DNA of 64,000 nt from Bdellovibrionales bacterium (GTDB taxonomy: Bacteria > Bdellovibrionota > Bdellovibrionia > Bdellovibrionales > JAMPXM01): contig JAYUEN010000107.1 in the NCBI GenBank assembly GCA_043739185.1, forward strand, positions 106 to 64,105, written 5' to 3'. Both the position numbers and the translations under genes were made by a program. How positions within the stretch are numbered: the first letter of the stretch is position 1; every line of letters begins with the position of its first letter. Below, piece after piece: positions 17,164 through 48,061 of the stretch. Below the pieces are notes generated by a model. The model was not told where the DNA came from. It ran no database searches and was given only the letters and a program-made list of their open reading frames with translations.

Positions 17164-17198
17164 ATTACGTTTTCGAGGGCCTGCCAGTCAAGTTAGAA

Positions 17199-17429: not shown

Positions 17430-17546
17430 AATCTCTTCTCGGAACTTTAAGTGTTCCCTCAATACGGACCAAGAGACAGATTTGAAGACCTGTAAAAACG
17501 CAATTTTTATTTTTTCAAGACTAAAATCTCATCTCGACGCAAGTTT

Positions 17547-17825
17547 ATTTTGTAGGATTCAATACAGGGCCAGTGCTTTTGCTTGCGAAATTTGACCTGA
17601 ACAAAAGAGCTTGTTATGATTTGGGTAAGGTATCTGTGGCATTATGCACAGAAGTAAAGAAACCCTACAAGTATAGAGATAGGGGACCGTCCCTGGAAAT
17701 GGTGTGCAAGCTCTGCCTTCGGGACCAGAGAAGCCTAAAGTTTCTATCATGGTCACCCACCTTAACAAATACGGGTTTCTCATTTCTGTTTGCGCCACAG
17801 GTCCCTATTTTTTTTAAAACAAAAT
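17547..17825 (+). ncRNA. Candidate 6S RNA (SsrS-like), unusually long
   Basis: A non-coding 646-bp gap contains, in the same order and with similar spacing as E. coli 6S RNA (recalled from memory), GGGCCAGT (17567), CCAGAGAAGCCTAAA (17725-17739), CACCTTAAC (17758) and GGGTTT (17773). An irregular closing stem is possible: 17566-17576 with 17794-17806, and 17547-17553 with 17819-17825. Boundaries are approximate. Confidence 0.4.
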
Positions 17826-18062
17826 CAGCGAACCCATAAACTGCCTACAGCAAAACCGAAACTGTTCACCGAAACCGAAACAGCAGACCGCCAACTGCTG
17901 ACCGCTGCCGGCAAACCGACATCCGCACCCAAGCCCTTTGCCCAGATCCTCTCCTCAATCATGAGATCTGATTCCTTCACCCAGGATTATTTGAGAAACT
18001 ATGTTTGAAACTTTCTCAATATGAAACACATTACAATTTGAATAATCATTAGGGCTGTTTTG

Positions 18063-18078
18063 TGGCACCTGTGTTGCA
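18063..18078 (+). promoter_or_regulatory. Sigma-54 (-24/-12) promoter
   Basis: TGGCACctgtgTTGCA matches the TGGCAC-N5-TTGCW consensus exactly, with GG-N10-GC spacing. It lies about 30 nt upstream of the ATG at 18109. A GGAGGG Shine-Dalgarno sits at 18094-18099. Confidence 0.75.
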
Positions 18079-18108
18079 CATTTAGACAGTAGCGGAGGGC
18101 AGATCCAA

Positions 18109-29945: not shown

Positions 29946-31502
29946 ATGATTAATTGGGATGAATTTGATCATATACATGTGATTAAAAAATTAAAGCAAA
30001 TCTTAGGTGCTTGGTGGAGCATTGATGTCGTATTCACAGATGAGCGCGGCTATCTAAGAGGCTTTGACAAATCAAAGACGGCTACATTTAATCCCGCGGT
30101 ATCTACTTATTTAAATAAGGATGCCGGCGCCGAAAACTTTTCAGGCTTGGTAACCAAAGCTCTCGACGATATGAGGCTTTCTGAAAATCGATATAGTTTT
30201 CGTAAGTGGGAAATGGCGGGCTTTGATGTCGCGGTATTTCCGATAATGATCGACAATGACGTTATGGGTTCGGTTGTGGCAATGGGCTTTTTCAAAGATC
30301 AATCTACGCCTCAACGCCTTGAAGAAATTAGAGAGCGCCTCGCAGCCTTTGGCGCTTCTTCGGATGTCATTGAAGCCTCACTCACTAAGTTTAAATATTT
30401 AGACGATGCGGATCGTGAGCACTTTAGCGAACTGGTAGATCTGGTTGCACAAGAAGTAATTACTCTGCATGTTGAGATCACTCAAAGAGAAAATCGCATC
30501 AAAGAACTCAACAAAGAATTGGGCTCACGTTATAAATACGATAATATGATTGGTAAATCGAAGCCAATGCAATCGTTGTATGCTCTTCTTGATAAAGTTA
30601 AAACCGCAGACAGCACGGTTCTCATTCAAGGAGAAAATGGTACTGGTAAAGAATTGATCGCCAAAGCTATTCACTACAATTCGGTTCGCAAAGAGAAGTC
30701 ATTTGTTATTCAGAACTGCTCTGCTTTCAATGACAATTTACTTGAGTCCGAATTATTTGGACACGTAAAGGGTTCTTTCACTGGCGCGATCAAAGATAAA
30801 AAGGGCTTGTTTGAAATCGCAGATAAAGGGACCTTCTTTTTAGATGAGATTGGTGATACTTCTCCGCAAATGCAAGTGAAGCTACTTCGAGTTTTACAAG
30901 AAGGGACTTTTACTCCTGTTGGAGCAACCGAGCCCCGCAAGGTAGACGTTCGAATTATCGCAGCGACCAATCGTACCCTCAAAGATATGGTTGAAGCTGG
31001 AACCTTTAGAGAAGACTTATTTTATCGCTTAAACGTTATTAATATTCGTGTTCCACCCTTGCGAGAGCGCAAAGAGGATATTCCGGTTTTGGCAGAATTC
31101 TTTCTTTCGAAATCAGCCGAAAAGGGCGGTCCGAAAAAGATTTTGACTAAGAGAGCCCTTGAAAAGCTCTATGACTATCCATTTCCAGGAAATGTGAGAG
31201 AACTGCAAAATGAGATGGAGCGCCTCGTGGTGTTGAGTGGTGTTGAGACGAAATTGACTGCCGATATGCTTTCGCCAAAAATTATTGAAGCAAGTGATAA
31301 AGGCAAAGTTCAAGGTGCACGCGTACACGGAAAACTCAAGGATGCACTTGAAGACCTTGAGAGAGATTTAATTAAAGATGGCTTGCGCAGAACTGGCTGG
31401 AACAAATCGAAACTCGCAAAAGAACTTGGCATTAGCCGCGCCGGCCTCATTATGAAGGTCGAAAAGTACGGTCTCGATAAGAGACGTTTGTTGAAAGCTT
31501 AG
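29946..31502 (+). CDS. Sigma-54-dependent transcriptional activator (bEBP) with an N-terminal sensory domain and a Fis-type HTH
   Basis: AAA+ Walker A GENGTGKELIAKAIH, sigma-54 contact loop GSFTGA (GAFTGA variant), ESELFGH, Walker B FFLDEIG and C-terminal HTH KSKLAKELGISRAGLIMKVEKYGL. An AGAGGGAG Shine-Dalgarno lies upstream. Confidence 0.9.
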   Translation: MINWDEFDHIHVIKKLKQILGAWWSIDVVFTDERGYLRGFDKSKTATFNPAVSTYLNKDAGAENFSGLVTKALDDMRLSENRYSFRKWEMAGFDVAVFPIMIDNDVMGSVVAMGFFKDQSTPQRLEEIRERLAAFGASSDVIEASLTKFKYLDDADREHFSELVDLVAQEVITLHVEITQRENRIKELNKELGSRYKYDNMIGKSKPMQSLYALLDKVKTADSTVLIQGENGTGKELIAKAIHYNSVRKEKSFVIQNCSAFNDNLLESELFGHVKGSFTGAIKDKKGLFEIADKGTFFLDEIGDTSPQMQVKLLRVLQEGTFTPVGATEPRKVDVRIIAATNRTLKDMVEAGTFREDLFYRLNVINIRVPPLRERKEDIPVLAEFFLSKSAEKGGPKKILTKRALEKLYDYPFPGNVRELQNEMERLVVLSGVETKLTADMLSPKIIEASDKGKVQGARVHGKLKDALEDLERDLIKDGLRRTGWNKSKLAKELGISRAGLIMKVEKYGLDKRRLLKA

Positions 31503-33458: not shown

Positions 33459-36167
33459 CTAAAATCGCTTTTTCTTTTTGTTTCGCTCAAGTTCTCGGCG
33501 ATCTTTGCGTGACATATTCGAGCCACCTGCGCCGCTCCCACCGCCACCTTCACCACCGCCCGAATAGATGAGGCGTTGTTTGCGTTTGGGTTGAAGTGCT
33601 TGTAGCGCAACTTCAGAGTCTGCATTGCCGCTATCATCGTCCTCATAGTCTTCGTCAGACTCTTCGCTTTCAGGGTCCATGATTTCTTTGGGCGGCTGGT
33701 GCGGCTCACCTTGTTGCTGTTGCACCAACTGAATTTTTAAGAACTTCTCTACTACTTCGGCTTTAATTGCGAAGTTCATTTCTTCGAATTTTTTAAAAGC
33801 CTCTTGCTTGTATTCGACGAGAGGATCTTTCTGTGCATAAGCACGCAAATTGATCCATTCGCGAAGCTGATCAATTCCCTGCAAATGATCTTTCCAACGT
33901 TGATCAATGGTTTGCAACAAAATCATTTTCTCAACTTGTTTAAAGTACGGACCGAGCTTCACGATTTGTTCGTCGAAGGCGCGCTTCACTTCTTTTTTTA
34001 CAACTTCGGTCAGCTCCGCAGCACTATGAATATTTCCGGGGCTGAGAGCGAGCTGCAAGCCGTACTGTTGAACAATTGCGGTGCTGAGGCCTGGCAAATT
34101 CCATTGTTCAGGCTTCAATCTCTCTTCTGCAAAAGTATCTAATATTGTACCGGTCACATCGGACAACATATCTACGATAATCTGATCAAGGCGATCACCA
34201 CCTTGAAGAACTTCTTTTCTCAAACCATAAATTACGAGGCGTTGCTTATTCATGACGTCGTCGTATTCTAATAAATGCTTTCGAATGTCAAAATTGTGAC
34301 CTTCTACTTTTCTTTGTGCGCCTTCAATCGAAGAAGAAACCATCCCTGCTGTGATCGGCTCGTCTTCTGGCATATTCATCGCATTCATGAGCTTTTGAAT
34401 TCTTTCGCCATTGAACTTTCTCATGAGATCATCATCAAGCGCCAAATAAAATCGCGATGCGCCCGGATCGCCTTGGCGACCTGAACGGCCCCGCAATTGA
34501 TTGTCGATACGACGAGACTCGTGTCTTTCGGTTCCGATAATTTTGAGTCCACCGGCCTCGATCACTTGTTTTTTTTCAGCCTCGCAAACGTTTTTGAAAT
34601 CTTCGACCGCCTTGTGAAACTCCTCACTTTCGTGATCTTTTACTTTGTGCTTTGCCAGTCCTTCAGGGTTTCCGCCAAGCACAATATCAGTGCCTCGGCC
34701 GGCCATATTGGTGGCAATGGTGACAGATCCTTTGCGACCCGCTTGTGCTACAATTTCTGCTTCGCGCTCGTGAGCTTTCGCATTTAAAACATTATGTGGA
34801 ATGCCCGCGCGTTTGAGATATGTACTAATATGTTCGGAACGCTCAATACTCACAGTACCGACTAGAACCGGCTGACCCATTTTTTGACATTCAATAATAT
34901 CTTTTATGATGGCGTTGTATTTGCCGTTGGCATTTTTATAAATCACGTCTTCGGTATCAAGTCTGCGTACCGGCCTATTGGTAGGAATTACCGAAACCTC
35001 GAGATTATAAATCTTTTTCATCTCGACAGCTTCGGTTTCAGCAGTTCCCGTCATGCCGGCAAGCTTTTTATACATTCGAAATAAGTTTTGAAACGTGATG
35101 GTTGCAAGCGTTTGATTTTCATTTTTTACTTTAACATTCTCTTTCGCTTCAACGGCTTGGTGAAGACCATCACTCCAGCGGCGCCCCTCCATCAGGCGAC
35201 CCGTGAATTCATCGACAATGATGACTTCATCATCTTTCACCATATAGTCGACATCTTTTGAGTAAAGGTGATGCGCTTTTAGCCCCTGATAAATATGATG
35301 CAAGAGCGCGATATGTTCAGGGTCATACAAATTGCCAATCTTAAGAAGTTCTTCGCAGCGAGAGTTGCCGTCTTCAGTCAAAGAAACTGTTTTGGTTTTC
35401 TCCTCCATAGTGAAATCGATTTCTTTTTTCAAAAATGGAATGATCGCATTGATTGTATAATATTTATCAACCGCATCTTCTGCAGCACCTGAGATAATGA
35501 GCGGCGTTCGCGCCTCATCAATCAAAATCGAGTCACACTCATCGACAATTGCAAAGTTGAGCGGGCGCTGCGTGTATTCGCGCAAGTCAAACTTCATATT
35601 GTCGCGCAAATAGTCGAAACCTAATTCGTTATTAGTTGCATAGGTGATGTCGGCATTATAGGCCTCTTGCTTTTCTTCATCACTTTGCCCGTGCTTGATC
35701 ACTCCGGTTTTGAGTCCCAGCCAAGAATAAAGTTTGCCCATCCATTCGGCGTCACGACTTGCAAGATAGTCATTCACCGTCACGACGTGAACACCTTTGC
35801 CCTCAAGCGCATTCAAATAAACTGCTAAGGTAGCAACAAGTGTTTTGCCTTCCCCGGTTTTCATCTCAGCAATACATCCACGGTGTAAAATTATACCGCC
35901 GATGAGCTGCACATCATAATGGCGCATTCCTAGCACCCTTGTTGAGGCTTCGCGACAGACGGCAAAAGCTTCAGGCAAAATTTGATCTAAGCTTTCACCT
36001 TTTGCGAGGCGGGCTTTGAACTCAGGCGTTTTTTGTTGGAGCTCAGCGTCCGAGAGCGACTTCATTTTTGCATCAAAAGAATTAACATTATCAACAATCG
36101 GCTGAAGTCGCTTCATTTCACGTTGATGTTGAGTTCCAAAAACTTTCGCTAACAATGTGGTAACCAT
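33459..36167 (-). CDS. secA: Preprotein translocase ATPase SecA
   Basis: N-terminal LLAKVFGTQHQREMKRLQPIV, Walker A MKTGEGKTL and DEAD-like VDECDSILIDEARTPLIISG. The start is placed at ATG 36167, preceded by a GAGGA Shine-Dalgarno. The ORF-track TTG at 36179 is less likely. Confidence 0.95.
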   Translation of the reverse strand: MVTTLLAKVFGTQHQREMKRLQPIVDNVNSFDAKMKSLSDAELQQKTPEFKARLAKGESLDQILPEAFAVCREASTRVLGMRHYDVQLIGGIILHRGCIAEMKTGEGKTLVATLAVYLNALEGKGVHVVTVNDYLASRDAEWMGKLYSWLGLKTGVIKHGQSDEEKQEAYNADITYATNNELGFDYLRDNMKFDLREYTQRPLNFAIVDECDSILIDEARTPLIISGAAEDAVDKYYTINAIIPFLKKEIDFTMEEKTKTVSLTEDGNSRCEELLKIGNLYDPEHIALLHHIYQGLKAHHLYSKDVDYMVKDDEVIIVDEFTGRLMEGRRWSDGLHQAVEAKENVKVKNENQTLATITFQNLFRMYKKLAGMTGTAETEAVEMKKIYNLEVSVIPTNRPVRRLDTEDVIYKNANGKYNAIIKDIIECQKMGQPVLVGTVSIERSEHISTYLKRAGIPHNVLNAKAHEREAEIVAQAGRKGSVTIATNMAGRGTDIVLGGNPEGLAKHKVKDHESEEFHKAVEDFKNVCEAEKKQVIEAGGLKIIGTERHESRRIDNQLRGRSGRQGDPGASRFYLALDDDLMRKFNGERIQKLMNAMNMPEDEPITAGMVSSSIEGAQRKVEGHNFDIRKHLLEYDDVMNKQRLVIYGLRKEVLQGGDRLDQIIVDMLSDVTGTILDTFAEERLKPEQWNLPGLSTAIVQQYGLQLALSPGNIHSAAELTEVVKKEVKRAFDEQIVKLGPYFKQVEKMILLQTIDQRWKDHLQGIDQLREWINLRAYAQKDPLVEYKQEAFKKFEEMNFAIKAEVVEKFLKIQLVQQQQGEPHQPPKEIMDPESEESDEDYEDDDSGNADSEVALQALQPKRKQRLIYSGGGEGGGGSGAGGSNMSRKDRRELERNKKKKRF

Positions 36168-36324
36168 AATAATCCTCAAAATCCTCTAATCAAAAGAGAC
36201 AAATTTCTCAGTGATTATGATATCATGAAGATTGGCCTGCGATCTATCTAAACCTCATGGCTAAGCAATTCGGGGCACGCTTAACGCGAAGCCAAACGAA
36301 GCCTCGGAATCAAAGGATACTGGC

Positions 36325-37317
36325 CTATAAATTCATTTTGTAATTAGCTTCAAAATCCGCAATTTGGGTGCCCGCATAAAGTTGCTTTATCGTTTTGAAA
36401 ACCATGTCCTCATCAGAAATCCAAAAAGCTTCTCGGCGCGAGACTTCAAGATTACGCGCCTGCTCCTCTAAAACACGAAAATCCTGCCTGACCAAAATCC
36501 CGGTAAAGAATTTGAACATTGGCTTTTTTACTAATCTAAAAAACCCGGCTTTTTTAAATTGAAAAACCAGTGACCCGGCGCTCATCCTTTCCTTTCTTTC
36601 GCTTACAAAAAGACTAACTCTTAAATCCAGGCCTGCCGGGCTCCAGTACTCCAGTACGGCCACATCCGGATGAAAATACTTGCCAATTGTTTTGCTTCGC
36701 TGGCCTTCAAATATTTGACTGATGATACCCTTCGGGGTGGCTTCATTTAAATATTCAACCGAAAGGCATTGCTCCGTTGATTGATAGCGTGCCTTTACGT
36801 CTACCGAAACCCGATCACTCGAAGCTCTCAAAAAAGGCGCATGAATATAATGGGTATGAAGTGGATCAAGTAAGTTTTCTAGAATATGAATTTTCTGCGC
36901 CTTAATGCTGCAGCTATGACGAAAGCCGTCCATCTCTGCTTCTTCGAGGTTGGTCATCCAAGTCGGCAAAGCGGTTTCCGAATGATCTGAAATAAAAAGC
37001 AGTTCGCCAAAATTTCGAATCGCAAAACTCTTCAAACAAAGTTTTGGTGTCAGACCTTCGACAAAGCCAGGCCGCGCCAGGAGATTCCCTAGAGAATCAA
37101 AGCTCCAGCCATGATAGGAGCATTTTAAGTTGTACTCCTCGCCTGTTTTTTCAAGCAGGCCCTCACTCAGCGGAAAGCCGCGATGCGGGCAGTAGTCTAA
37201 AAATGCGCGATAAGTTTTCTTTACTTGGAATACAACAATCGCCTGTCCTTTAAAAAACAAGCGATTGGGGCGACCTTCTACTAAGTTTTTCGAATCCTCC
37301 AGAAAATGCCAGCTCAC
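36325..37317 (-). CDS. Rieske [2Fe-2S] non-heme-iron oxygenase
   Basis: Rieske ligands CPHRGFPL ... CSYHGWSF and mononuclear iron motif DPLHTHYIH (D-x2-H-x4-H). It starts 3 nt after the stop of the upstream 470-aa gene. Confidence 0.85.
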   Translation of the reverse strand: MSWHFLEDSKNLVEGRPNRLFFKGQAIVVFQVKKTYRAFLDYCPHRGFPLSEGLLEKTGEEYNLKCSYHGWSFDSLGNLLARPGFVEGLTPKLCLKSFAIRNFGELLFISDHSETALPTWMTNLEEAEMDGFRHSCSIKAQKIHILENLLDPLHTHYIHAPFLRASSDRVSVDVKARYQSTEQCLSVEYLNEATPKGIISQIFEGQRSKTIGKYFHPDVAVLEYWSPAGLDLRVSLFVSERKERMSAGSLVFQFKKAGFFRLVKKPMFKFFTGILVRQDFRVLEEQARNLEVSRREAFWISDEDMVFKTIKQLYAGTQIADFEANYKMNL

Positions 37318-37320
37318 AGA

Positions 37321-38733
37321 TTACTTTGCTCCAAATCCTCCGGCGACATCATTGAGCACGCGCAAGCTTCGTGCGATCGAATCCGAATCGGTGGTTTCGA
37401 AGTATTGCTGGTAAATTTCGGTATTCCAAGCTTTTGCGCTCCCTTGATGAAAATTTCGATACTCAACTGCTTTGGTTCCCTCTTTAAGTTCAAGATTCAC
37501 CGTGTTTTTATATTTCATGTCAAAATCATTCGGAAAAAACTTTTTCAAATCTTCTGGCGCTTCATTGTTGAAGACCTTGGGCAAATATACTTTCGCGGTT
37601 TTGCCGGTCACTAAACTTCGCACCATTTTGCCCGCAAATAAGCGTTCAAGATTAGCAAGATAAAGATCGGCCGTTGATTTATCAAGACTGATCAGTGCAT
37701 TTGGCAAAGAAAAGCCTGCGTTGGCAGGACGGGCTTTGAGACCACTCCAGGCATCGGTCATGCGATCCAAAGCTTCTCCTATATAGACACCCGCCTCTGT
37801 CATAAACTTTTGACCAATATTTTCTTTTTTATTTAGCTTCCAAAGTTTGGCGTTTTGGGGCTTCTGAAGAAGTTTATAAATCTCATCTCCCGTCACCCCG
37901 TCAACGGCTAGAAATGTACCCTTAACAAAAGCATCGAAGCCGTAAAGGCCACCCACTTGCTTGGCAAAATCTAGAGCACCATTCTGATTATAAGCACATA
38001 AAAAATCCATACTTGCTACGCTTAAATCATATTGAGCAATTAGCAGTTGCAATTCCTCAGTGCCAAAGCTCAGTTCGCGATTCAAGCCATCAGCAAAAGA
38101 GTCTGCACCTGCAGAGATACGACGATCCCACTTAAATACGCGCGCATTCGAAATTTGATTAAGCGCCGAAATGAGATCGTTGGTTTTCATTCGAAGCGTA
38201 TCATTAATAAAAGTCTGAATTGCGGCCTCGTTTTCGATTTTGCCAACAAGGACGCCCTCAATCTCGAAGGGACTTGCCAAATAATCTAAGAGTGCGCCAG
38301 AGGCCTGAGCCGGACTAAAGAGGCTGATGCCGGCTACATTTTGTTTTATAAAAGACACGATGAGCGATTGAATATTGTGATTATCCGCAGAGCCTCTTTC
38401 GAAAAAGGGTCGTACTCGCCAAAAAAAGCCACGCACAGCCTCTAAATAGATGAGGTGTGCATTTAAAAACTGCGCCGACGGATCGTGAATCTTCGCGCGA
38501 TTCGCCTTAGCAGATTCTATTAAAGCTTGAAAATCATTTGCGGTCTTTGCATCCAAAACTTTTTTAACCAATTGTTCGTATTCGCTCTCAGAAGACGGCG
38601 TTCGTTTTTCTTCTTCTGCTTTGGCCTGTGCCTTTTTATAGCCCGGGGCCTGCAGTCCCCGCCAAATCAAATCTTCTGACTTTGCGGCCGCCAATACGGG
38701 CACTAACAAAAGCATCAAAAACAATTTTTTCAT
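37321..38733 (-). CDS. Secreted hypothetical protein
   Basis: 470-aa ORF with signal peptide MKKLFLMLLLVPVLAAA. No recognisable family. It is tightly coupled to the Rieske oxygenase gene. Confidence 0.6.
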   Translation of the reverse strand: MKKLFLMLLLVPVLAAAKSEDLIWRGLQAPGYKKAQAKAEEEKRTPSSESEYEQLVKKVLDAKTANDFQALIESAKANRAKIHDPSAQFLNAHLIYLEAVRGFFWRVRPFFERGSADNHNIQSLIVSFIKQNVAGISLFSPAQASGALLDYLASPFEIEGVLVGKIENEAAIQTFINDTLRMKTNDLISALNQISNARVFKWDRRISAGADSFADGLNRELSFGTEELQLLIAQYDLSVASMDFLCAYNQNGALDFAKQVGGLYGFDAFVKGTFLAVDGVTGDEIYKLLQKPQNAKLWKLNKKENIGQKFMTEAGVYIGEALDRMTDAWSGLKARPANAGFSLPNALISLDKSTADLYLANLERLFAGKMVRSLVTGKTAKVYLPKVFNNEAPEDLKKFFPNDFDMKYKNTVNLELKEGTKAVEYRNFHQGSAKAWNTEIYQQYFETTDSDSIARSLRVLNDVAGGFGAK

Positions 38734-38839
38734 TTCAATTCTCCTGGTTTTAAAAAGTCAGAATATCTTAAATCTAACACTAGTAGAATCCTCTATGCAT
38801 TTTAATTTACAAACATGGTCGATGGTTGGGCCCAGCTAA

Positions 38840-40567
38840 CTATTTTTTAAAAACATACTGGCCCAGCACCAGCATATCGAGACCCGAAGTGAAAAATACC
38901 GCAAGCGCATCTTCAACATCGTGAATAATCGGACGGCCCATGACATTGAAGCTCGTATTGAGCAGGACCGGGACTTTGGTCTTTTTATAAAAGCTATTGA
39001 GCAAAGCATAAAATCTTGGATTGTCTTCTTTTCTCACGCTTTGCACTCGCCCCGTTTCGTTGCAATGCACGACTGCAGGGGCGATTTCGGTGTTCTTAAA
39101 CCTCAATGTTCTCTCCATATAAGGAGAGTATTGATAGTTGTGAAAAAGCTCGGGGCCCTTTTCATCTAGAATACTCGGCGCAAAAGGCCTGAACTCTTCT
39201 CGAAACTTAATGCGTTCATTGATGTGATCCTTGGTCTTGGCTTTTCGGGGATCAGCCAAAATCGAGCGATTGCCAAGTGCCCGCGGACCAAACTCCGCCC
39301 GACCTTGTACCCAACCTACAAGCTTTCCTTCTGAAAGTTCTTTTGAAACCTCCTCAATCAATTCGTTTTCACTGAAAAATTTAGCCTTTAGGCCTCCGAG
39401 TCGTATGGCGCGTTCAATTGTTTCTGTTGAAATCTCTGAACCTAAAAATGCGGTATGTGCATTGAGTGGTCGTTGTTTCGGATGATCTTTCATCCAACTC
39501 AAATAAGCCGAACCGATTGCATTTCCGTCGTCACCGGGCGCCATTGAAATATGCAAATTTTTAAATGGCGTTCTCTCCAAAAGGACCCCATTACAAGATG
39601 AGTTGAGTGCACAGCCTCCGCCCAAAATGAGATTGGCGCCACCCCATTTACTGTGAACCTGCACAAGTAACTCACACATCAATTCTTCAAAAATCGCTTG
39701 CCCTGCGAAAGCGAGATTGGCCGCCTCAAGGGGACTTCGAAACTTTTCTCGGAGACTTAGGAGTTTCGTGAGTTGCTCGGCATATCGCGGGGACTTCTGA
39801 ATGCTCTGATTTTTAATTTTTAGCAGAGATCGACATAAATTTTCATATTCACTTTGCATTTTTCCATAAGGGGCGAGGCCCATCACCTTCCACTCTTCGC
39901 CGGCAAGTGGATCAAAGCCGCAGGCCCAACAAACCGCCGCATAAAAAAGACCCAAACTTGCAAAATCAGCAAAGCTCTTGGTTTTGATTCTTTCGATCTT
40001 GGCGTTTTCAAATGAAAAAATCGCCTGGCTCGTAGCTTCACCTGCGCCGTCAACTATCACGCAGATTGCATTATCAAACGGACTCGAATAGCACGCCGTT
40101 GCTGCATGACAAAGGTGATGTTCCCAGCCTATTTTTTTCAAGTTTTGCAACTTCTTCATTTCAAAAAGACGATATTCTAGATTCAATAGCATATCGCGAT
40201 TGTTGATAGGGGCTCCGTACATAGCTTGGCGAAAGGAGTGGGTCTCCATTTGTTGGCCCAATTGAGAAAAGCGCGCATGAAAGCTCGCTTGCAAATTCAA
40301 TATTTTTTTTGTTAGCCAGGACCATTTGAGAATGTCATCTGACCAAGAAAGTCCGGCAACTATTGGCCCATCATTGACATACTTTTTCAAAATACCATCT
40401 AAAAATAGTACAGGGTCCGGAGAAGTATTCCAGGCGCGCTTGTTTTTTAAAACTCTCTCATTGGCTTCGGCAAATAGCAACTGACCGGCTTCATTCAGAA
40501 CTGCAATTGCAGAATCATGTGAAGTGGTGCCAAAACCTAAATATGTCGCCATGCTTGCAATTCCCAT
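38840..40567 (-). CDS. Carbamoyltransferase (NodU/CmcH family)
   Basis: N-terminal YLGFGTTSHDSAIAVL (ASKHA-like carbamoyltransferase N domain), the C-terminal signature RAEFGPRALGNRSILADPR and LNTSFNV. Confidence 0.85.
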   Translation of the reverse strand: MGIASMATYLGFGTTSHDSAIAVLNEAGQLLFAEANERVLKNKRAWNTSPDPVLFLDGILKKYVNDGPIVAGLSWSDDILKWSWLTKKILNLQASFHARFSQLGQQMETHSFRQAMYGAPINNRDMLLNLEYRLFEMKKLQNLKKIGWEHHLCHAATACYSSPFDNAICVIVDGAGEATSQAIFSFENAKIERIKTKSFADFASLGLFYAAVCWACGFDPLAGEEWKVMGLAPYGKMQSEYENLCRSLLKIKNQSIQKSPRYAEQLTKLLSLREKFRSPLEAANLAFAGQAIFEELMCELLVQVHSKWGGANLILGGGCALNSSCNGVLLERTPFKNLHISMAPGDDGNAIGSAYLSWMKDHPKQRPLNAHTAFLGSEISTETIERAIRLGGLKAKFFSENELIEEVSKELSEGKLVGWVQGRAEFGPRALGNRSILADPRKAKTKDHINERIKFREEFRPFAPSILDEKGPELFHNYQYSPYMERTLRFKNTEIAPAVVHCNETGRVQSVRKEDNPRFYALLNSFYKKTKVPVLLNTSFNVMGRPIIHDVEDALAVFFTSGLDMLVLGQYVFKK

Positions 40568-40669
40568 TTTATTTTCTCAAGTTGACATTCTACTTCATTT
40601 TGCAAGAATGCCAAGCGCGGGCTGGTTACTTTTTTGGGAACCGCGCCATAAGCGATCGCGAGATTTAAT

Positions 40670-42802
40670 TTGAACTCATTAATCCGTCGTTTTTACTTTC
40701 ACTTTACTAGGCGAAAACTTCAGGCTGTGTTTGCGGCGCTTCTATTGATTTTTTTATCGCTCCCAGCATTGCAATTGAAATTCAAGACTGAAATAAAGGA
40801 TTTGCTAGAAGGCAACTCGCCTGAGGTCTCGCAATACAAAGAAAATCTTAAGCTTTTTCAGCCTGCGAATCGCTTGATTGCTCTTTTGTCAAAGCGCGAT
40901 CAAAGCGTTTGGCGTGAAGCGGATTTGATAAATCTCAAAACCTGGATAACTGAAACAAAAGCTCAATACAAATTTGTAGAAAATATCCTTTCACCCTTAT
41001 CCATACGAACCGCCGTCTTTGATTCAAAAAAATCGCAATTGAACTTCCCCCTGATTCTCCATCCTGAGGGCTCAATCCAAACGCTAGATTGGGACCGCTT
41101 TTCAACTTCGTACTGGGCTCCTTTCTTCTTGGGAAATGATCGCAAAAGTCTCATTTTGAGTTTTACTTTGAACAGCCAAGCCGGCCCGCCAGAACTGAAA
41201 TTACTCACACAAATGAAGGACGCTCCGGGAAATTTTACGATGGCGTGGACTGGCGACCAAATTTTCAAACTCTTTTCTGAAAATGCTATGAAGAAAATGT
41301 CTTGGTTGAATCTCATTGGCGTTTGCGCTCTCTTTGCATTTATCTGTTTGCTCTTCTCAAGTTGGACCGCTGGTCTTTTCACTATTCTTTCGGTTCTCTT
41401 GGGAATTCTGCCGATATTTGGCTTCATCGGGCTCGCCGGACAGGCTATAGATTTGCTCACCTCGAATTTGTTTTTACTCTTATTGATTGCCACCATTGAA
41501 GACGTCTTATTGGTTTTTTATTTTAGCGCTAAAAAGAATACTTCGATAGAAAGGAGCCTCGAAGAATTACTTCTGCCGTGCTTTTATACTTCACTAACGA
41601 CGGCAGTGGCTTTTGGCAGCCTGGGTGTTTCAGAAATTCCGATGGTTCGTCAATTTGCTTTATGGAGTAGTCTCGGTGCGTTTACCGAATGGTTTGTCGT
41701 CTTCTTTGTTGTTCCTGAACTCTTAAACAATTTTAAAAGGCAACGGCTTGAACTACTTTGGCTTCCTCGGATGCCAATATTTAAATTTAAGGCCCTCTCT
41801 TTTTGGATTAAAATTCTTTTGCTGCCCCTCGTAGCAGCACCAATATTGATATCAAAACTCAATTATAACGCCAGCCCGTTTGACATATTTAATTCGAATC
41901 ATCCGGTTCTTCACGTAAGAGAGAAATTGAGTGAAAGTCGCCATTGGGAAAATTCAATAGAAGTGGTTTTTTCAAATGATTTGCCAGTAAACACTGAAAA
42001 GTCCCTATTGTTACAAATGCAAAGTATTTCAAATATAAGCTGGATCGAACACCCTTATTTGATGCTCGAAGATTCGCTCACAAATGAGCTCTCTGCAGAA
42101 ATGAAAGATCTTGCTTTGAGCCAACTGCAATTCTCAGACTATGCAAAAAAATATTTCGCGGAAAACCGCCACCGCGGATTTTTATATATTCAAAATTCAG
42201 ACATGCCCTCCGTATCGCAAACCAAACAGCAGCTAGAGCAAATTTGTAATGAGCGCTGTCATATAACCGGAGAGCTGATTGCCTTTGGCGAATATTCTCG
42301 CGCCTTGGTTCGAACACTAAGCGAGAGTTTCATTTTCAGTTTGTTTTTAATATTAGTGGTTTTGTTTCTAATCTGTCGGCAGCTGAATATAAGCCGCCTG
42401 CACTTTATCTTTGCTTCCGTTCTTTGGGGCCCCTGCATGATGGTTTTGTTTTTCTTTTTTACCCATACTGCCGTTAGCTTAGTGAATTGCATTTTGCTTT
42501 CAACGGTTGTTGGTCTTTCTGGCGACTTCATGATTCAAGTCATGTTCAATCAAAAGCAAGGCTCCCTGGAGACCTCACTCGCCGCTTTTGGGCCTGCAAG
42601 TATGCTTTTGACCTTTCTTTTGGTGGGCTTGTGCGTCCCTTTTCTGTGGTCGCCTTTCGGAAATGTTCAAACCACAGGTTGGTTGCTGATGTTGAGCATA
42701 TTTTTAATTTCAATCGGAGATGTGCTGATTTTTAAACTGCTTTTGAGTTATAATTTGAAAATTTTCAAAAGCGGAAGCGCAATTGAAAACAATAAGGCTT
42801 GA
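40670..42802 (+). CDS. MMPL/RND-superfamily membrane exporter
   Basis: 710-aa ORF (TTG start) with two blocks of multiple TM helices separated by soluble loops, an architecture typical of predicted MMPL-type exporters. Its 3' end overlaps the convergent acyltransferase-like gene by 55 nt. Confidence 0.65.
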   Translation: MNSLIRRFYFHFTRRKLQAVFAALLLIFLSLPALQLKFKTEIKDLLEGNSPEVSQYKENLKLFQPANRLIALLSKRDQSVWREADLINLKTWITETKAQYKFVENILSPLSIRTAVFDSKKSQLNFPLILHPEGSIQTLDWDRFSTSYWAPFFLGNDRKSLILSFTLNSQAGPPELKLLTQMKDAPGNFTMAWTGDQIFKLFSENAMKKMSWLNLIGVCALFAFICLLFSSWTAGLFTILSVLLGILPIFGFIGLAGQAIDLLTSNLFLLLLIATIEDVLLVFYFSAKKNTSIERSLEELLLPCFYTSLTTAVAFGSLGVSEIPMVRQFALWSSLGAFTEWFVVFFVVPELLNNFKRQRLELLWLPRMPIFKFKALSFWIKILLLPLVAAPILISKLNYNASPFDIFNSNHPVLHVREKLSESRHWENSIEVVFSNDLPVNTEKSLLLQMQSISNISWIEHPYLMLEDSLTNELSAEMKDLALSQLQFSDYAKKYFAENRHRGFLYIQNSDMPSVSQTKQQLEQICNERCHITGELIAFGEYSRALVRTLSESFIFSLFLILVVLFLICRQLNISRLHFIFASVLWGPCMMVLFFFFTHTAVSLVNCILLSTVVGLSGDFMIQVMFNQKQGSLETSLAAFGPASMLLTFLLVGLCVPFLWSPFGNVQTTGWLLMLSIFLISIGDVLIFKLLLSYNLKIFKSGSAIENNKA

Positions 42803-43836
42803 AGAATTCGAAAGCCAATTCGGCGTGGCCATGACAAATGCTTTATATAAACGGCGCTGTACTCAATCACTGGCCGCCCCCCGCGCAGCCGCTTAAATTC
42901 AGAGGCTCCAGAGCTCAAATTAACTAGGAGCTTGCGCTCTTTTGCATACCGAAGCGCCAGCGCAATCAAGAGCCGGTAAAGACCTTCTTTTTGCGGCCGT
43001 CGAGTATCATAACCTACAATTGGCACAGTCAATACTTCGTCCACAATAAAATACCCCACGACCCCTTGCAGCTCACCCTTCTCGTCTCGCAAGCCAAAGA
43101 GCTTCATGACCCCAGACTCTTGGCAAAGCTTGAGATAGCTTGCTGAAAAGGCCGGGTTATACTGCGAATATTTTTCTAAATAAAGCAAAGCATATAGCTC
43201 TTCACTGCGCTGAAAATCCTGATCTGAGAACTCAGTGCCGTTTACGATTTGCAAACTGCTGCGATCTAATAGTTTTTGATCGCGAAACATATTTTTCGAC
43301 TTGATCTGTTGACCAATTCGAAAATCGAAAAAGTATACCTGCCGCGAAGGAATCAAGCTAAATCCGAGCCGACGAAGTCCGTGGATCAGGTCGGCATTCG
43401 TAAAGTAATTCAGCGAGCGGAAAATTATAAAATGTTGATCGGCTTTTCGAATACTTTCTTTTGCCCATTCAGAAAATGCCGTTTCGGAGTTTTTGGGGTA
43501 GAGATTAGTTGATAGTAACCAATTGTTAATGCTTATAGACTGATTCAGCCGCATAGCTTTCAGCAAATAGGATAGGGGCAACAAGATGAGTCCTAAAAGC
43601 CCGAGTATCATTGGTAGCTTTTTCAGCTCTTGACGTGAATACAGTATGAGCGCCGAGTACGGTGATACCACATAAGAAGCGTTGAACTCGGCAAAGTTGG
43701 CCGTACTAGGCGACCAGAAATCTTTCTTCTGACTCCAACTCAATTGAGTCATGACGTTTGGAATCAATTTTTGGATTTCTTCCTTGCCGACAAATTTACT
43801 TCGAAATTCGGAGTGCGGCCAATTTTTATCAGCCAT
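42748..43836 (-). CDS. FemAB/CelD-like GNAT-fold acyl/aminoacyl-transferase (putative)
   Basis: The C-terminal block GELQGVVGYFIVDEVLTVPIVGYDTRRPQKEGLYRLLIALALRYAKERKLLVNLSSGASEFKRLRGG resembles the CelD/FemAB-type acetyltransferase domain. It is the last gene of the six-gene operon. Confidence 0.45.
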   Translation of the reverse strand: MADKNWPHSEFRSKFVGKEEIQKLIPNVMTQLSWSQKKDFWSPSTANFAEFNASYVVSPYSALILYSRQELKKLPMILGLLGLILLPLSYLLKAMRLNQSISINNWLLSTNLYPKNSETAFSEWAKESIRKADQHFIIFRSLNYFTNADLIHGLRRLGFSLIPSRQVYFFDFRIGQQIKSKNMFRDQKLLDRSSLQIVNGTEFSDQDFQRSEELYALLYLEKYSQYNPAFSASYLKLCQESGVMKLFGLRDEKGELQGVVGYFIVDEVLTVPIVGYDTRRPQKEGLYRLLIALALRYAKERKLLVNLSSGASEFKRLRGGRPVIEYSAVYIKHLSWPRRIGFRILQALLFSIALPLLKIFKL

Positions 43837-44968
43837 TGTATTCGAAGTCCTCAGATGAGATTTGCAATACCGATTTTTTTGAACCCAATGAAATTAAAAT
43901 AAATTGTGCAAACGAAATATACTGCCCGAACATCGGCAAAGGATCTTTAAAATCCCAAGTCATATCTTTTCCGCGAACCAGATCATTATAAAATTGTATC
44001 CAACGACTTGGCAGAAAGCTCATTGGTGTAGCATAAATTACCATTGCCGCCGCTAGCATACGGGGCTGCCTACGGTCGGCAAAAAGAATACCTTTATTTA
44101 AATTGAAAAAACAATCCGTCAAACGGCTATCAAAAAAACTCACCCCACTTGTCGCCCGAGGGTTGCATTCGAGCAGCCAAAAGTTTTGATCGTGCTGATC
44201 GAGGATTAAATCAAAAGCAACCTGACCGTGAAACTCATTTTTATGCGCGAACTCGATGCAAAAATTCAACAGGCGCTCATCATAAAAAGCTTCTAAATAA
44301 ATTCCGGCTCCTTGGCCGACTCGAAAAGTAGGTCGATACGCACAGAAAGCCTTGAGCTCTCCCTTAAAACAAACGGCATAAATGCAAACCTCAAGACCCT
44401 TTTTCTTGAGTTGTGCTACCCAACTTCCCTGGGACCAATCAAGCGTTTGCGCAAGCTGGTCTTCGCTCGGACCAATAATCGTTTTTGCCGCAAACCTTGA
44501 GTAAACCGGTTTGAAAACAAAGTTCTCAGACTTTAACTTTAATTGCTGCCAATCGGCTGCAGACGTCAACAGAAATGTCTCGGGGGTTTGAATCGACCAA
44601 GCTTGAGATGCTTGAGAAAAGAACATTTTGTTGTGTAGACTCTCGAGTTTTTCGAAATGATCACAAAAAATAGCATCCATTTTCATTTGATTCTTAAGTT
44701 TTGCGAAATAAAAGACCTCTTCGCAAGTCGGAACAATTAGATCATAATGATTTTCGCTTTGAAGCTTCATAATTTTTTCGGCGAATTCATTAAAAGCAAA
44801 GCGTGGCGACGGGCTTTTATAAAACTTTCTAACACGAGAAGAAAATCGGGCCATCGGATAGTTGATCGACTCAACAATATCGACCCTACTGTTCTGATCA
44901 AAAAATTGTCTCGTCAGTGCGAGACTTACTGGAGCCCTCGCTCCGGCAATTAGGATTTTGTTTGCCAT
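43829..44968 (-). CDS. ATP-grasp ligase
   Basis: N-terminal pre-ATP-grasp Rossmann-like KILIAGARAPVSLALTR and C-terminal ATP-grasp motif FWLLECNPRATSG. It overlaps the upstream gene by 19 nt. Confidence 0.7.
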   Translation of the reverse strand: MANKILIAGARAPVSLALTRQFFDQNSRVDIVESINYPMARFSSRVRKFYKSPSPRFAFNEFAEKIMKLQSENHYDLIVPTCEEVFYFAKLKNQMKMDAIFCDHFEKLESLHNKMFFSQASQAWSIQTPETFLLTSAADWQQLKLKSENFVFKPVYSRFAAKTIIGPSEDQLAQTLDWSQGSWVAQLKKKGLEVCIYAVCFKGELKAFCAYRPTFRVGQGAGIYLEAFYDERLLNFCIEFAHKNEFHGQVAFDLILDQHDQNFWLLECNPRATSGVSFFDSRLTDCFFNLNKGILFADRRQPRMLAAAMVIYATPMSFLPSRWIQFYNDLVRGKDMTWDFKDPLPMFGQYISFAQFILISLGSKKSVLQISSEDFEYNG

Positions 44969-46245
44969 AAATTTACTATTCTTTGACGCTTCATTTGGGT
45001 CGGCAAAAACTCTTCGTTTGCCAATATACTAATTTTAAGCCAATCCGCCTTTTTCGATACTAAAACTTCTTTAAGTTTCAATCTGAGCTCGGTCTCTTCG
45101 GTTGGACTCAACGTCTTATCGAGTGTGATCTGAATTTCACACGGCCCGCGCTGTTCAACTCGGTAATTCCAATTGAAACAGTTTTGAGAGCCCATAAATT
45201 GTCTAAAAAAATCAGGAAAAAACTCTCGCTTTTCTCCCCACTCACTTTCAAAACTTAGAATTTGATCTGCACGTCCTTCAATAGCACTCAATGCCAAACT
45301 CGGATTGCCGCAGGGACATGGATTTTGGCCAGCTCTAAGTATATCATCAAGTTGATAACGTATGATTGACTGCGTTTTTCGCTTCACATCTGAAATAATT
45401 GGTAAAAATCGGCCTTCCGAAATTTCCTTCTTCTCAATGATATAGAGCCCTTCATTTAAATGAATTTGGCCGTAACGACAGGACACGCCCAAAAAGCCTT
45501 CTGTTGCCTGATATATTTCTAAGAACTGGCAATCGTTATCGCAGCTAAAATAGTCTTTAATTCGAATTCTCTCTCTCGTCTCAAGCACATCTGCTCCACA
45601 TAAAACAAAATGCGGGTGAATATCAGCCCTTGGAACAAGATTCATATATTTTAAATAAAAATTGGGCACGGACATTAAAACACTTGGCCTGAAATTTTTC
45701 AGCTGTGTGGCGGTTTCTTCTATCGGGGCGTTGAGATTGAAAAATTTGAGTTTCAGCCAACCCAAATTGATACCATCGTAAAGACTGCTGTGGGTGCGAA
45801 AGACAAAGGCGATGTTCTGTTTCTTAAAGAAGGACCAGCCCAGAATCTTAGCCAAAATCGCGCCCGCCCAAAGCCCGACTTCACGAGAGTTCAAAATAAA
45901 CACACCCCGCTTGCCAGAGGTGCCGGTCGACAGTCCAATAGTCAAATGGGCTTTCTTTTTCAGATAGTCACCGCTATTTTCAAGCTTCTCGCAAAATTGG
46001 TAAGCCTCTTCTAAACCGATTCCTGGCAGATTGAATTGCTCGAAGTCTTTTAAATATTTTGCCTTATCAATGATAGGGATTTCTTCCCAGTTTTTGATTT
46101 TTTGTCTTTGATAGTATTTGTAGCTTGTAAGTCGCTTTAAAATGTTTTTTTTGTTTCTTAATTTCGAGCGCTCTAGAGCCGCCAAAGATTTTGCAGAAAA
46201 AAACATTTCTCGAAAAAATGAAAGCAACATCCAAAGTGCTGTCAT
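44950..46245 (-). CDS. Adenylate-forming enzyme (coenzyme F390 synthetase / PaaK / CapK-like)
   Basis: P-loop-like AMP-binding motif STGTSGKRGVF, with ATEG and a C-terminal small domain. The start is placed at ATG 46245, which forms an ATGA overlap with the MBL gene stop. The ORF-track start is 46284. Confidence 0.7.
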   Translation of the reverse strand: MTALWMLLSFFREMFFSAKSLAALERSKLRNKKNILKRLTSYKYYQRQKIKNWEEIPIIDKAKYLKDFEQFNLPGIGLEEAYQFCEKLENSGDYLKKKAHLTIGLSTGTSGKRGVFILNSREVGLWAGAILAKILGWSFFKKQNIAFVFRTHSSLYDGINLGWLKLKFFNLNAPIEETATQLKNFRPSVLMSVPNFYLKYMNLVPRADIHPHFVLCGADVLETRERIRIKDYFSCDNDCQFLEIYQATEGFLGVSCRYGQIHLNEGLYIIEKKEISEGRFLPIISDVKRKTQSIIRYQLDDILRAGQNPCPCGNPSLALSAIEGRADQILSFESEWGEKREFFPDFFRQFMGSQNCFNWNYRVEQRGPCEIQITLDKTLSPTEETELRLKLKEVLVSKKADWLKISILANEEFLPTQMKRQRIVNLWQTKS

Positions 46246-47084
46246 TCGAGGCCGCCACTCAATTTCAGAAAAGTTTCTATACAATGCGAGGGAATCAGCT
46301 GAAGTTCAGGTTGTTTCAAATACAAAGTGTGAATTTTCGAAAAAGTTTTGAGATACTCTTTTGAACTATCAAAGACGAGTCCGGCCACACGCGGAGGTGG
46401 CCGCATTTCTCTCAATGCTTTGAGGCTCCAAGAAGCGTCGGCAATCATAAAACATTTACCATTTTTTTCGGAATTGAAAACCAAGCCAACTTGTCCTTCT
46501 TTATGGCCAGGAAGATCAATCGCAATAAGCGACCCATCTCCGAATAAATCGGCCCCTGAAAATACGAATTGACTGGCCGCTTGTCCGCTCCATGTTCTGC
46601 AGTCATCAATCCAAACAACTCGCTTTAGGAAATCCTTTGGCAAAAGATGTGGAAGATACGCATTGAGCAAATTTCGCCATGCACTTTTGCCATAATTGTT
46701 TTGAAAGGCACTCTTGCGACATAAAAATTTTGCCTTTTTAAAATCTTTTAAGCCCGCAATATGATCTCCATGAAAATGCGATATGACAATCCAGTTTACC
46801 TCAGCCGGAGCGATGCCGCGCGTTTTCAGCTGCTGGGCCGCCGTCTGATTTTTTGAAATAAAACCCGGACTAATGAGTGGGTAGATATTCTCTGGCCATT
46901 TGACTCTACGATTGTATTCGGGGTGGTAGCCGGTATCAAAAAGTATAACGCCCTCTTGAGGATGCCGAATGATTGCAAACAGCGAAGGAAACTCACAAGA
47001 CCGAAAAGACCCATTTTTCATACTGAGAATCTCGGGGTGACGACAAAAGCCCGCCTTACAAAGTTCAAACTCTAATCTTTTCAT
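46242..47084 (-). CDS. Metallo-beta-lactamase-fold hydrolase
   Basis: HxHxDH motif ISHFHGDHIAG, with downstream His/Asp ligands (LPGHKEG, DASW). It forms an ATGA overlap with the SDR gene. Confidence 0.85.
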   Translation of the reverse strand: MKRLEFELCKAGFCRHPEILSMKNGSFRSCEFPSLFAIIRHPQEGVILFDTGYHPEYNRRVKWPENIYPLISPGFISKNQTAAQQLKTRGIAPAEVNWIVISHFHGDHIAGLKDFKKAKFLCRKSAFQNNYGKSAWRNLLNAYLPHLLPKDFLKRVVWIDDCRTWSGQAASQFVFSGADLFGDGSLIAIDLPGHKEGQVGLVFNSEKNGKCFMIADASWSLKALREMRPPPRVAGLVFDSSKEYLKTFSKIHTLYLKQPELQLIPSHCIETFLKLSGGLE

Positions 47085-48061
47085 GTGAACGTCCTTAAGC
47101 CTTTTATTTCTGACAGGGCCTCAAACACCGACTGAGCGGGTCGATACCCCAATTCACTTTTAATTTTGCCAATGTCAAAGCTTTGGCTTTTCGAAATGAG
47201 ATCGAGCGAATAGCGGCTCAGTGGTGGTTCATGATCTGTAATTTTTGCCCAGGCTTTTTCGAAAAGAGGCGCAAAAAAATTGAGCGGAGCACTTTTTAGT
47301 GGAACCCACTTCACCTTTAAATTCAGATTTTTGGCCACCGCAAACAATAACTCACGAATGAGAATGGGCTCGTCATTCGTCAAATTGTAAAGCTCTCCGG
47401 AACGTTCTGCGGGCGCAAGCATCGCGAGCTCAACTGCCGCACAAATACTTGCAACCGGGGTCAAATCAATGCTCGCCATACCTTCATCAATAAGCGGAAA
47501 AAAACCCTTGTTCATAAGCTTTAATATTCGCGGCAAGAGTGTTTGATCATAAAGACTTATGATCGCACGTGGGCGCAGCGTGATCACCGAAAGTCCTTTC
47601 TTATAAAACTCATTGGCAATTTTTTCGCTCTGAAGCTTGGTCGAGGCATAACTCGTTTTTTGCTCTCGAGGCAATGGTGAGGCCTCAGTTAAATTGGTCC
47701 GGCTGGTGCCATCATAATAAACGGATGTAGTTGATATATGAATGACTCGCTTAACGTTGGCCGCGGCCGACCATTCGAAAAGCCTTCGACTCGCAATGAG
47801 GTTTGGCGCTTCAAAATCAAGGGGTGGTCCCCAGGGGCGAGTCAGCGCCGCAGAATGAATGACAAAATCGGCACGCAAAAATTCTTTGGCCAAATTCTCT
47901 TCACAGAGATCGGCCCGAATGGTTTTTATGCCTTTACTGCTTAAATATTCGAGGCGTTTTGTTTGGCGCCCAATGGCCACAACTTCATATTTCTTTTCAT
48001 GCAGATTTAAGCAAAGTGGCAAACCCAAAGATCCTGTGGCGCCAGTGACAATGACCTTCAT
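47081..48061 (-). CDS. NAD(P)-dependent epimerase/dehydratase-family extended SDR
   Basis: Rossmann motif MKVIVTGATGSLG and catalytic YASTK (YxxxK). It forms a TAATG overlap with the KAS III gene. Confidence 0.85.
   Translation of the reverse strand: MKVIVTGATGSLGLPLCLNLHEKKYEVVAIGRQTKRLEYLSSKGIKTIRADLCEENLAKEFLRADFVIHSAALTRPWGPPLDFEAPNLIASRRLFEWSAAANVKRVIHISTTSVYYDGTSRTNLTEASPLPREQKTSYASTKLQSEKIANEFYKKGLSVITLRPRAIISLYDQTLLPRILKLMNKGFFPLIDEGMASIDLTPVASICAAVELAMLAPAERSGELYNLTNDEPILIRELLFAVAKNLNLKVKWVPLKSAPLNFFAPLFEKAWAKITDHEPPLSRYSLDLISKSQSFDIGKIKSELGYRPAQSVFEALSEIKGLRTFT

Follow-up and report, generated by a model that had tools for sequence, protein, structure and literature searches.

The locus described here occupies positions 36325-49047 of a 64,000-nucleotide stretch of contig JAYUEN010000107.1 from a Bdellovibrionales bacterium; this whole stretch is called the window below. 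The locus spans 12.7 kb and is bordered by secA (33459-36179) and by trmL/glnA. An earlier sequence-only reading had divided it into a six-gene biosynthetic operon and four tailoring and export genes: a Rieske oxygenase, a secreted 470-aa protein (here sp470), a carbamoyltransferase and an exporter. The size that it gave, about 12.7 kb, holds, and the four open reading frames (ORFs) lie exactly where it placed them, with the domains that it named. The division itself had to be redrawn, since the Rieske gene proved to be a conserved seventh gene of the cluster. The genes are listed below, with GNAT standing for GCN5-related N-acetyltransferase, KAS for beta-ketoacyl-acyl carrier protein synthase, MBL for metallo-beta-lactamase, RND for resistance-nodulation-division and SDR for short-chain dehydrogenase/reductase.

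36325-37317, minus strand: Rieske [2Fe-2S]/mononuclear-iron oxygenase, 330 aa; the displaced seventh gene of the cluster
37321-38733, minus strand: sp470, exported protein of an unannotated family, 470 aa; proposed periplasmic partner of the RND protein
38840-40567, minus strand: NodU/CmcH-type (TobZ-like) O-carbamoyltransferase, 575 aa; optional tailoring gene
40568-40669: divergent intergenic region between the carbamoyltransferase and RND genes, 102 bp
40670-42802, plus strand: divergent RND-superfamily permease, HAE3/HpnN/MmpL-like, 710 aa; proposed exporter
42748-43836, minus strand: GNAT-like protein, core gene 6, 362 aa; hydrophobic segments at residues 71-95 and 342-360
43829-44968, minus strand: ATP-grasp ligase (PRK06849-like), core gene 5; NF005315, 300 bits
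44950-46284, minus strand: F390-synthetase-related adenylate-forming enzyme, core gene 4; TIGR02304, 284 bits (cut-off 251.9)
46242-47084, minus strand: MBL-fold hydrolase, lactonase-like, core gene 3; Lactamase_B, HFHGDH motif
47081-48061, minus strand: extended SDR (OleD/3-beta-HSD-like), core gene 2; Epimerase PF01370, GATGSLG and YASTK motifs
48061-49047, minus strand: KAS III (FabH-like) condensing enzyme, core gene 1; ACP_syn_III and ACP_syn_III_C

The exporter gene runs into the 3' end of the operon, as first read: the RND and GNAT-like genes are convergent and overlap by 55 nt at 42748-42802. The sp470 gene is preceded by an AGGAG ribosome-binding site, and only 3 nt (tct) lie between its TAA stop and the GTG with which the Rieske gene begins. 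Promoter and terminator scans of the locus gave counts no higher than the shuffled background. Promoter-like hexamers do occur on both strands of the 40568-40669 region, with 10/12 matches each (region-wide count 26, shuffles 19.4 +/- 4.6), and are weak evidence for divergent promoters there. The F390-related ORF as listed has 444 aa, a TTG start and a 43-nt overlap with the MBL gene; in an identical metagenome contig (L001) the called gene begins near 46245, overlaps by 4 nt and encodes 431 aa, which is probably the correct version.

Which of these genes form the conserved unit? The ATP-grasp protein has 2254 homologues. ATP-grasp homologues were aligned, and the resulting profile was used to scan one genome per GTDB species, with 10-kb flanks retrieved. 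This gave at least 586 confirmed relatives; the locus comparisons use the best 80 of these. The 80 loci span at least ten phyla and include Pseudomonadota (alpha, beta and gamma), Planctomycetota, Bacteroidota, Chloroflexota, Acidobacteriota, Verrucomicrobiota, Vampirovibrio, Eremiobacterota, Bacillota and Bdellovibrionota. The window proteins were compared with them in a tblastn matrix, in which 61 loci reach far enough downstream for the position of the Rieske gene to be evaluated. In 46 of these 61 the GNAT-like gene is followed immediately, and on the same strand, by a Rieske homologue (25-31% identity to the window protein, 85-98% coverage); in a Shinella plasmid example the two genes share 4 nt. 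When the ORFs of the loci were clustered all against all, only seven recurrent families emerged, namely the six operon genes and the Rieske gene. Together these results indicate that the conserved unit has seven genes, and that the Rieske oxygenase, as judged from gene neighbourhoods, is an ancestral core member of a widespread cluster and not an accessory to it. The window holds all seven families within 36325-49047 and departs from the canonical order in that the RND, carbamoyltransferase and sp470 genes separate the GNAT-like and Rieske genes. Placing the Rieske gene in the core corrects the unit to clone or delete. With at least 586 relatives in at least ten phyla, and on plasmids too, the seven-gene cluster is among the more widely spread uncharacterised biosynthetic operons that were sampled.

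The Rieske protein itself looks catalytically intact. It matches PF00355 with 61.5 bits and VanA_C at the border (23.3 bits against a cut-off of 23.5), and among solved structures SxtT, SxtDIOX and DdmC come closest, at E ~1e-8. Across 45 cluster-linked homologues the CxH...CxxH ligands of the [2Fe-2S] centre (C43, H45, C66 and H69) show at least 90% conservation, and the mononuclear iron motif D-x2-H-x4-H (D151, H154, H159) and the distal carboxylate D279 are conserved as well. The protein has no signal peptide or transmembrane (TM) segment.

The other core enzymes can be assigned to broad families, mostly at scores below the curated cut-offs. KAS III matches PRK07204 with 336 bits (cut-off 402), the best NCBIfam match of the extended SDR is OleD (136.5 bits, cut-off 580), and the MBL protein is closest to the AttM/AhlS lactonases, all under cut-off. 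The F390-related enzyme finds PaaK structures in the PDB at 1e-6; literature mentioning 'coenzyme F390 synthetase' gave no functional information. PDB sequence searches with the ATP-grasp and GNAT-like proteins returned no matches. An AlphaFold2 (AF2) model of the ATP-grasp protein (pLDDT 94.5) matches PurK, L-amino-acid ligases and PylC in Foldseek at ~1e-14; the predicted structure is thus a generic ATP-grasp fold that fits a carboxylate-amine ligase and nothing more specific. The GNAT-like protein, present in 65 of the 80 loci, has no match in a Pfam search and takes its name from homologues elsewhere that PGAP labels 'GNAT family N-acetyltransferase'.

Several loci carry variants of the cluster. 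The Chloroflexota versions (L023, L047, L058, L062, L064 and L065, from Anaerolineales and Herpetosiphon) have the order SDR-MBL-GNATlike-KASIII-ATPgrasp, with no Rieske gene and no detectable F390 homologue; the absence of the oxygenase might reflect low-oxygen lifestyles. Plasmid-borne copies of the cluster occur in Rhizobium, Shinella (L106, NZ_CP132312.1), Bacillus mycoides, Xylella, Deinococcus and Paraburkholderia, and on the Paenibacillus urinalis plasmid NZ_CP118102.1 (L107) an SDR and an OYE-type flavin oxidoreductase replace the Rieske gene.

The three remaining genes have a different distribution. The sequence-only reading had attached them all to the operon; 79 of the 80 cluster loci lack sp470, this RND subfamily and the carbamoyltransferase, the exception being L004. 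This locus, from a Bdellovibrionales metagenome-assembled genome, is the nearest relative (ATP-grasp protein 58% identical) and has the gene order of the window; its contig stops short of the expected sp470 position. We retrieved the contigs of the other nearest ATP-grasp relatives, whose proteins are 42-48% identical. In L085 and L088/89 nine genes are collinear in one operon, KASIII-SDR-MBL-F390-ATPgrasp-GNATlike-sp470-Rieske-RND, and the carbamoyltransferase is missing. In L084 and L086/87 the cluster is split. ATPgrasp-GNATlike-RND share one strand and are followed by the carbamoyltransferase on the other; sp470-Rieske come after it, and F390-MBL-SDR, on the opposite strand, close the series. 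In L090 only ATPgrasp-GNATlike-Rieske are present. Throughout this clade the spacing between sp470 and the Rieske gene is at most 10 nt. That the four genes stay with the core through at least three rearrangements is good evidence of functional linkage in this lineage, and the comparison of gene orders thus supports the view that all four are functionally tied to the operon in the lineage of the window. The carbamoyltransferase is the optional one: it is present in three of the five closest-clade lineages, L004, L084 and L086/87, with orthologues of 57-68% identity placed inside the cluster, and absent from L085 and L088/89. The simplest history would be that sp470 first came to lie between the GNAT-like gene and the Rieske gene while the RND gene joined the end of the operon, that the carbamoyltransferase was then acquired in a sub-lineage, and that the RND gene was last of all inverted in the ancestor of the window.

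Outside this clade sp470 keeps other company. An alignment of a 15-sequence sp470 subfamily led to 15 metagenomic loci, seven of which have long flanks (L091, L097, L098, L100, L102, L104 and L105; GC content 35-56%). All seven have an RND homologue within 3.5 kb of the sp470 homologue. These RND homologues are 22-30% identical to the window protein over ~90% of its length, and their genes are divergent, co-directional or convergent with respect to sp470. Since an RND gene is found beside sp470 in every locus with enough flanking sequence, the constant partner of sp470 is the RND protein. The contrast with the other cluster loci (7/7 against 0/79 with an RND homologue) gives a Fisher p of 2e-10, to be read with the phylogenetic non-independence of the loci in mind. 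Hidden Markov models (HMMs) of sp470 and of the RND subfamily match the same loci, and the RND model also matches L004, where the contig ends before sp470; plasmid searches gave zero sp470 matches and one weak RND match only.

The seven remote loci all lack the ATP-grasp and GNAT-like genes, and six lack a homologue of any of the six operon genes. What they carry are genes for fatty-acid desaturases, a fatty-acid hydroxylase, a GH3-type adenylating enzyme, a PAP2 phosphatase and B12-radical-SAM proteins. A Rieske homologue is present in L097 (VanA_C 29.5), L100 and L102, and none lies within 10 kb in L091, L098, L104 or L105. These occurrences tell against two expectations of the sequence-only reading: that the secreted protein is primarily coupled to the Rieske oxygenase, when distant loci pair it with the RND protein, often with no Rieske gene nearby; and that the added genes and the core go together, when sp470 and RND genes occur in loci without the ATP-grasp and GNAT-like genes and the core occurs without them in 79 of 80 loci. 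The claim that the four genes belong with the operon thus survives for the closest relatives, where they are kept despite rearrangement, and must be qualified otherwise, the carbamoyltransferase being optional and the sp470-RND pair portable. From their genomic neighbourhoods sp470 and RND appear to behave as a portable module that is joined to different lipid-type gene sets.

L104 is a hybrid. Between 7451 and 17124 it has homologues of KAS III, F390-like, MBL and SDR genes, without ATP-grasp, GNAT-like or Rieske genes, together with sp470, RND, two desaturases, a fatty-acid hydroxylase and a hexapeptide transferase; the first four core genes may thus form a separable sub-module. Two low-GC metagenomic contigs, L098 (15267-21382) and L105 (15204-21310), have one radical-SAM gene and four paralogues of the B12-binding radical-SAM type in an array that directly adjoins the sp470, GH3 and RND genes.

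What kind of protein is sp470? Its N-terminus, MKKLFLMLLLVPVLAAAKSE, resembles a signal peptide, as had been noted, with a signal-peptide-like start MKKLFLMLLLVPVLAAA that ends before KSE, and such an N-terminus is found in 139 of 149 family members. No Pfam or NCBIfam family was hit even at E = 10, a profile search of the PDB gave no match, and Foldseek found no match to the model in the PDB or BFVD. A word-based search returned only sp470 itself (two proteins with the family alignment), whereas a full HMMER scan recovered 298 remote homologues of ~500 aa, two at 39-40% identity and the others at 32% or less. The AF2 model (pLDDT 86.6, pTM 0.85) is mostly helical with a few short strands, and the conserved polar residues are D203, D215, R219, S373, R426 and N427. 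Two candidate identities were rejected: a lipoprotein, as the protein is free of Cys and a lipobox-like motif occurs in only 4 of 149 members, and a LolA-like or membrane-fusion adaptor, as the model is mostly helical.

The sequence-only reading called the exporter MMPL-type. It does match MMPL (PF03176, 37.1 bits, cut-off 20.5), and Sterol-sensing with 25.1 bits, but against the curated NCBIfam models it scores 41.8 for HAE3 (TIGR00921, cut-off 351.9), 21.8 for HpnN (TIGR03480, 751.9) and 16.7 for MmpL (TIGR00833, 874.7). Since these scores are far under the cut-offs, the protein is better placed in a separate, divergent RND subfamily. A crude hydropathy method gives 12 TM segments in a 1+5/1+5 arrangement, with TM1 at 20-38, a loop at 39-212, TMs at 213-394, a second loop at 395-549 and TMs at 550-690. 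A profile of the 13-member family finds HpnN (8.8e-9) and MmpL5 (4e-8) in the PDB, with MmpL4 weaker. The second periplasmic loop has a C-x3-C pair (C526-C530; 42245-42259) that, like R502, G534 and E535, is invariant in 13/13 subfamily members; the pair could form a disulfide or a site for a ligand or partner.

The carbamoyltransferase is readily identified. Carbam_trans_N (PF02543, 120.3 bits), the Kae1-like N-terminal domain, and Carbam_trans_C (PF16861, 221.2 bits), the YrdC-like C-terminal one, both match at full length, and the solved members NovN, GdmN and TobZ are found at 3.1e-62, 2e-55 and 2e-55, respectively. The translation contains EHHLCHAATA (HxxxH) and MAPGDDGNA (GDDG). These stretches would correspond to HxxxH and GDxG, the metal-binding motifs of the Kae1-like domain in TobZ.

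We accordingly view the locus as a lineage-specific elaboration of the widespread seven-gene cluster, to which an sp470-RND export module was added and, in some cases, a carbamoyltransferase; for this architecture we put the probability at roughly 65%. A clade related to Bdellovibrionota would have gained the divergent RND permease and sp470 as a two-gene export module, and some of its members a TobZ-type O-carbamoyltransferase. The chemistry is proposed with much less confidence. In the cytoplasm or at the inner membrane the core would make an amphiphile, acyl-derived and with an amide or ester linkage, by activation through adenylation, KAS III condensation, keto-reduction and MBL-type release or ring chemistry; ATP-grasp/GNAT-type chemistry would form the amide or ester at the membrane. 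This amphiphile would be hydroxylated by the Rieske enzyme, and the carbamoyltransferase, using carbamoyl phosphate and ATP, would carbamoylate a hydroxyl group. The RND permease would then carry the product out of the inner membrane, and sp470 would receive or handle it in the periplasm, much as LolA/LolB-like proteins may do with ApeM or MmpS with MmpL4/5. The gene identities, the intact catalytic motifs and the patterns of conservation are observed directly; which substrate is used, in what order the steps run, which way transport goes and whether sp470 touches the RND protein are matters of inference. A lipid or amphiphile product, as the sequence-only reading had it, is plausible.

Known systems offer partial parallels. 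In the aryl-polyene (APE) cluster of E. coli CFT073, ApeM (RND/MMPL), ApeL (LolA-like) and ApeN (LolB-like) are proposed to move a lipid product to the outer membrane (PMC8253772). The likeness to our locus lies in an RND/MMPL-annotated permease encoded inside a lipid-type biosynthetic cluster with dedicated exported helpers. The differences are that the window RND protein aligns with ApeM at an hhalign probability of only 34% and not significantly in BLASTP, that sp470 has 470 aa and is mostly helical whereas LolA-type proteins have ~200 aa, and that the window core has neither acyl carrier proteins nor a type II PKS-like set. The APE module is the closest described analogue of the export part, by analogy and not by membership. 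HpnN, a hopanoid RND transporter, and MmpL4/5, the mycobacterial siderophore exporters, are the best profile matches among solved structures and share 12 TM segments and two periplasmic loops. MmpL4/5 depend on a small exported accessory protein that is encoded adjacent to them; sp470 is, however, unrelated to MmpS, and the flanks of the window contain neither hopanoid nor siderophore genes.

The enzymes have their own parallels. The carbamoyltransferase has the two-domain architecture of TobZ, NovN and GdmN, at E values of 1e-55 to 1e-62 and with HxxxH and GDDG in place, but it stands in a lipid-type cluster and not in an aminoglycoside, aminocoumarin or ansamycin pathway; from NodU it is remote (143 bits, cut-off 1000). 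Like the alpha3-type SxtT, SxtDIOX and DdmC/VanA, the Rieske protein combines a Rieske domain with what may be a VanA_C-like catalytic domain, with no beta subunit and with conserved ligands, although the similarity is only E ~1e-8, VanA_C falls just under its cut-off and no reductase gene is found in the locus. Finally, the OleABCD/beta-lactone (lipstatin-type) systems also have a FabH-like enzyme, an OleD-like SDR and an adenylate-forming enzyme adjacent to one another, followed by a lactonase-like hydrolase. In the window, however, OleD scores 136.5 against 580, the adenylating enzyme is of the TIGR02304 (PaaK/F390-like) and not the OleC type, and an MBL-fold protein takes the place of the alpha/beta hydrolase OleB; this parallel is a lead and not a sign of membership.

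Several points weigh against the architecture that we prefer. The loci were sampled with ATP-grasp and sp470 queries and so show the RND and carbamoyltransferase genes only where these accompany the cluster or sp470. A single-sequence PDB search with the RND protein found no match, and its likeness to known exporters, as judged from profile scores, is weak and under every curated NCBIfam cut-off. The role of export partner is proposed for sp470 from its gene neighbourhood, its fold being unrecognisable, and its conserved polar residues would also fit an enzyme; in the closest clade, moreover, it always adjoins the Rieske gene. The locus contains no redox partner or reductase for the Rieske enzyme and no outer-membrane component, and literature searches found no published work on the seven-gene cluster.

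Some of these points suit a different role for sp470, as a periplasmic tailoring enzyme or subunit tied to the Rieske step, with the RND protein merely exporting the finished product. The gene lies immediately upstream of the Rieske gene (at most 10 nt) throughout the closest clade, its invariant polar residues cluster on small beta-sheet elements of the model, and L097, L100 and L102 also hold a Rieske homologue. But the Rieske protein lacks a signal peptide and TM segments, which puts it in a different compartment from sp470; four remote loci (L091, L098, L104 and L105) have sp470 and RND with no Rieske homologue within 10 kb; and 46 canonical clusters have the Rieske gene and no sp470. We regard this role as unlikely, at odds of some one in five. 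Much less likely still is that the locus is catabolic or protective, degrading an external aromatic or lactone compound while the RND pump expels toxic intermediates. It would account for an MBL protein near quorum-quenching lactonases, an adenylating enzyme near phenylacetate-CoA ligase and a Rieske protein near the DdmC/VanA demethylases, but these matches are all far under the family cut-offs, and KAS III, ATP-grasp, GNAT-like and O-carbamoyltransferase enzymes are anabolic types. Nor does ORF clustering of the loci reveal an uptake system, ring-cleavage enzyme or beta-oxidation gene conserved with the cluster, and the sp470/RND pair accompanies lipid-building genes (desaturases, hydroxylase, PAP2).

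It is also conceivable that the Rieske gene alone is tied to the operon, and that the carbamoyltransferase, perhaps with the RND gene, is a chance neighbour or part of another pathway, for instance one that modifies glycans or the cell surface. L085 and L088/89 do have the full nine-gene operon without the carbamoyltransferase, a gap of 106 bp separates it from sp470 in the window, and the NodU/CmcH family is broad. Against this, its orthologues are more similar (57-68%) than the ATP-grasp proteins (46-58%), and it lies inside the cluster, always between RND and sp470, in three differently arranged lineages; we give such a coincidence a slight chance, if anything a shade below that of the catabolic one. 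The elaborated seven-gene cluster, with sp470 and RND as its export module, agrees best with these distributions.

A bolder extension of that architecture, which we hold only tentatively and at somewhat less than even odds, is that sp470 and the RND protein make up a hitherto undescribed two-component lipid exporter, comprising a HAE3-like permease of the inner membrane and a ~500-aa periplasmic protein of new fold, that is recruited as a unit by different lipid clusters in distant bacteria, and that the seven-gene cluster makes a new class of amphiphile, secreted or part of the envelope, in hundreds of species of at least ten phyla. The sp470-RND pairing itself is a first functional handle on an unannotated family of ~300 clusters (at 50% identity) that has no structural relative, and points to a portable export route for unusual lipids in Gram-negative bacteria. 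Comparing variants with and without the carbamoyltransferase by mass spectrometry is a natural way to look for the product.

Two other features of the window may be mentioned. No tRNA genes were detected across its 64 kb. A 6S/SsrS RNA gene is present at 17628-17807 on the plus strand, in an ORF-poor gap (17163-18109); it matches Rfam RF00013 at full length with 64.1 bits (gathering score 46.4). About 2 kb past secA, with three small family-less ORFs in between, a gene at 29946-31502 (plus strand) encodes a sigma-54-dependent activator of the NifA/AtoC/NorR-like type, which scores ~350 bits, under every equivalog cut-off.

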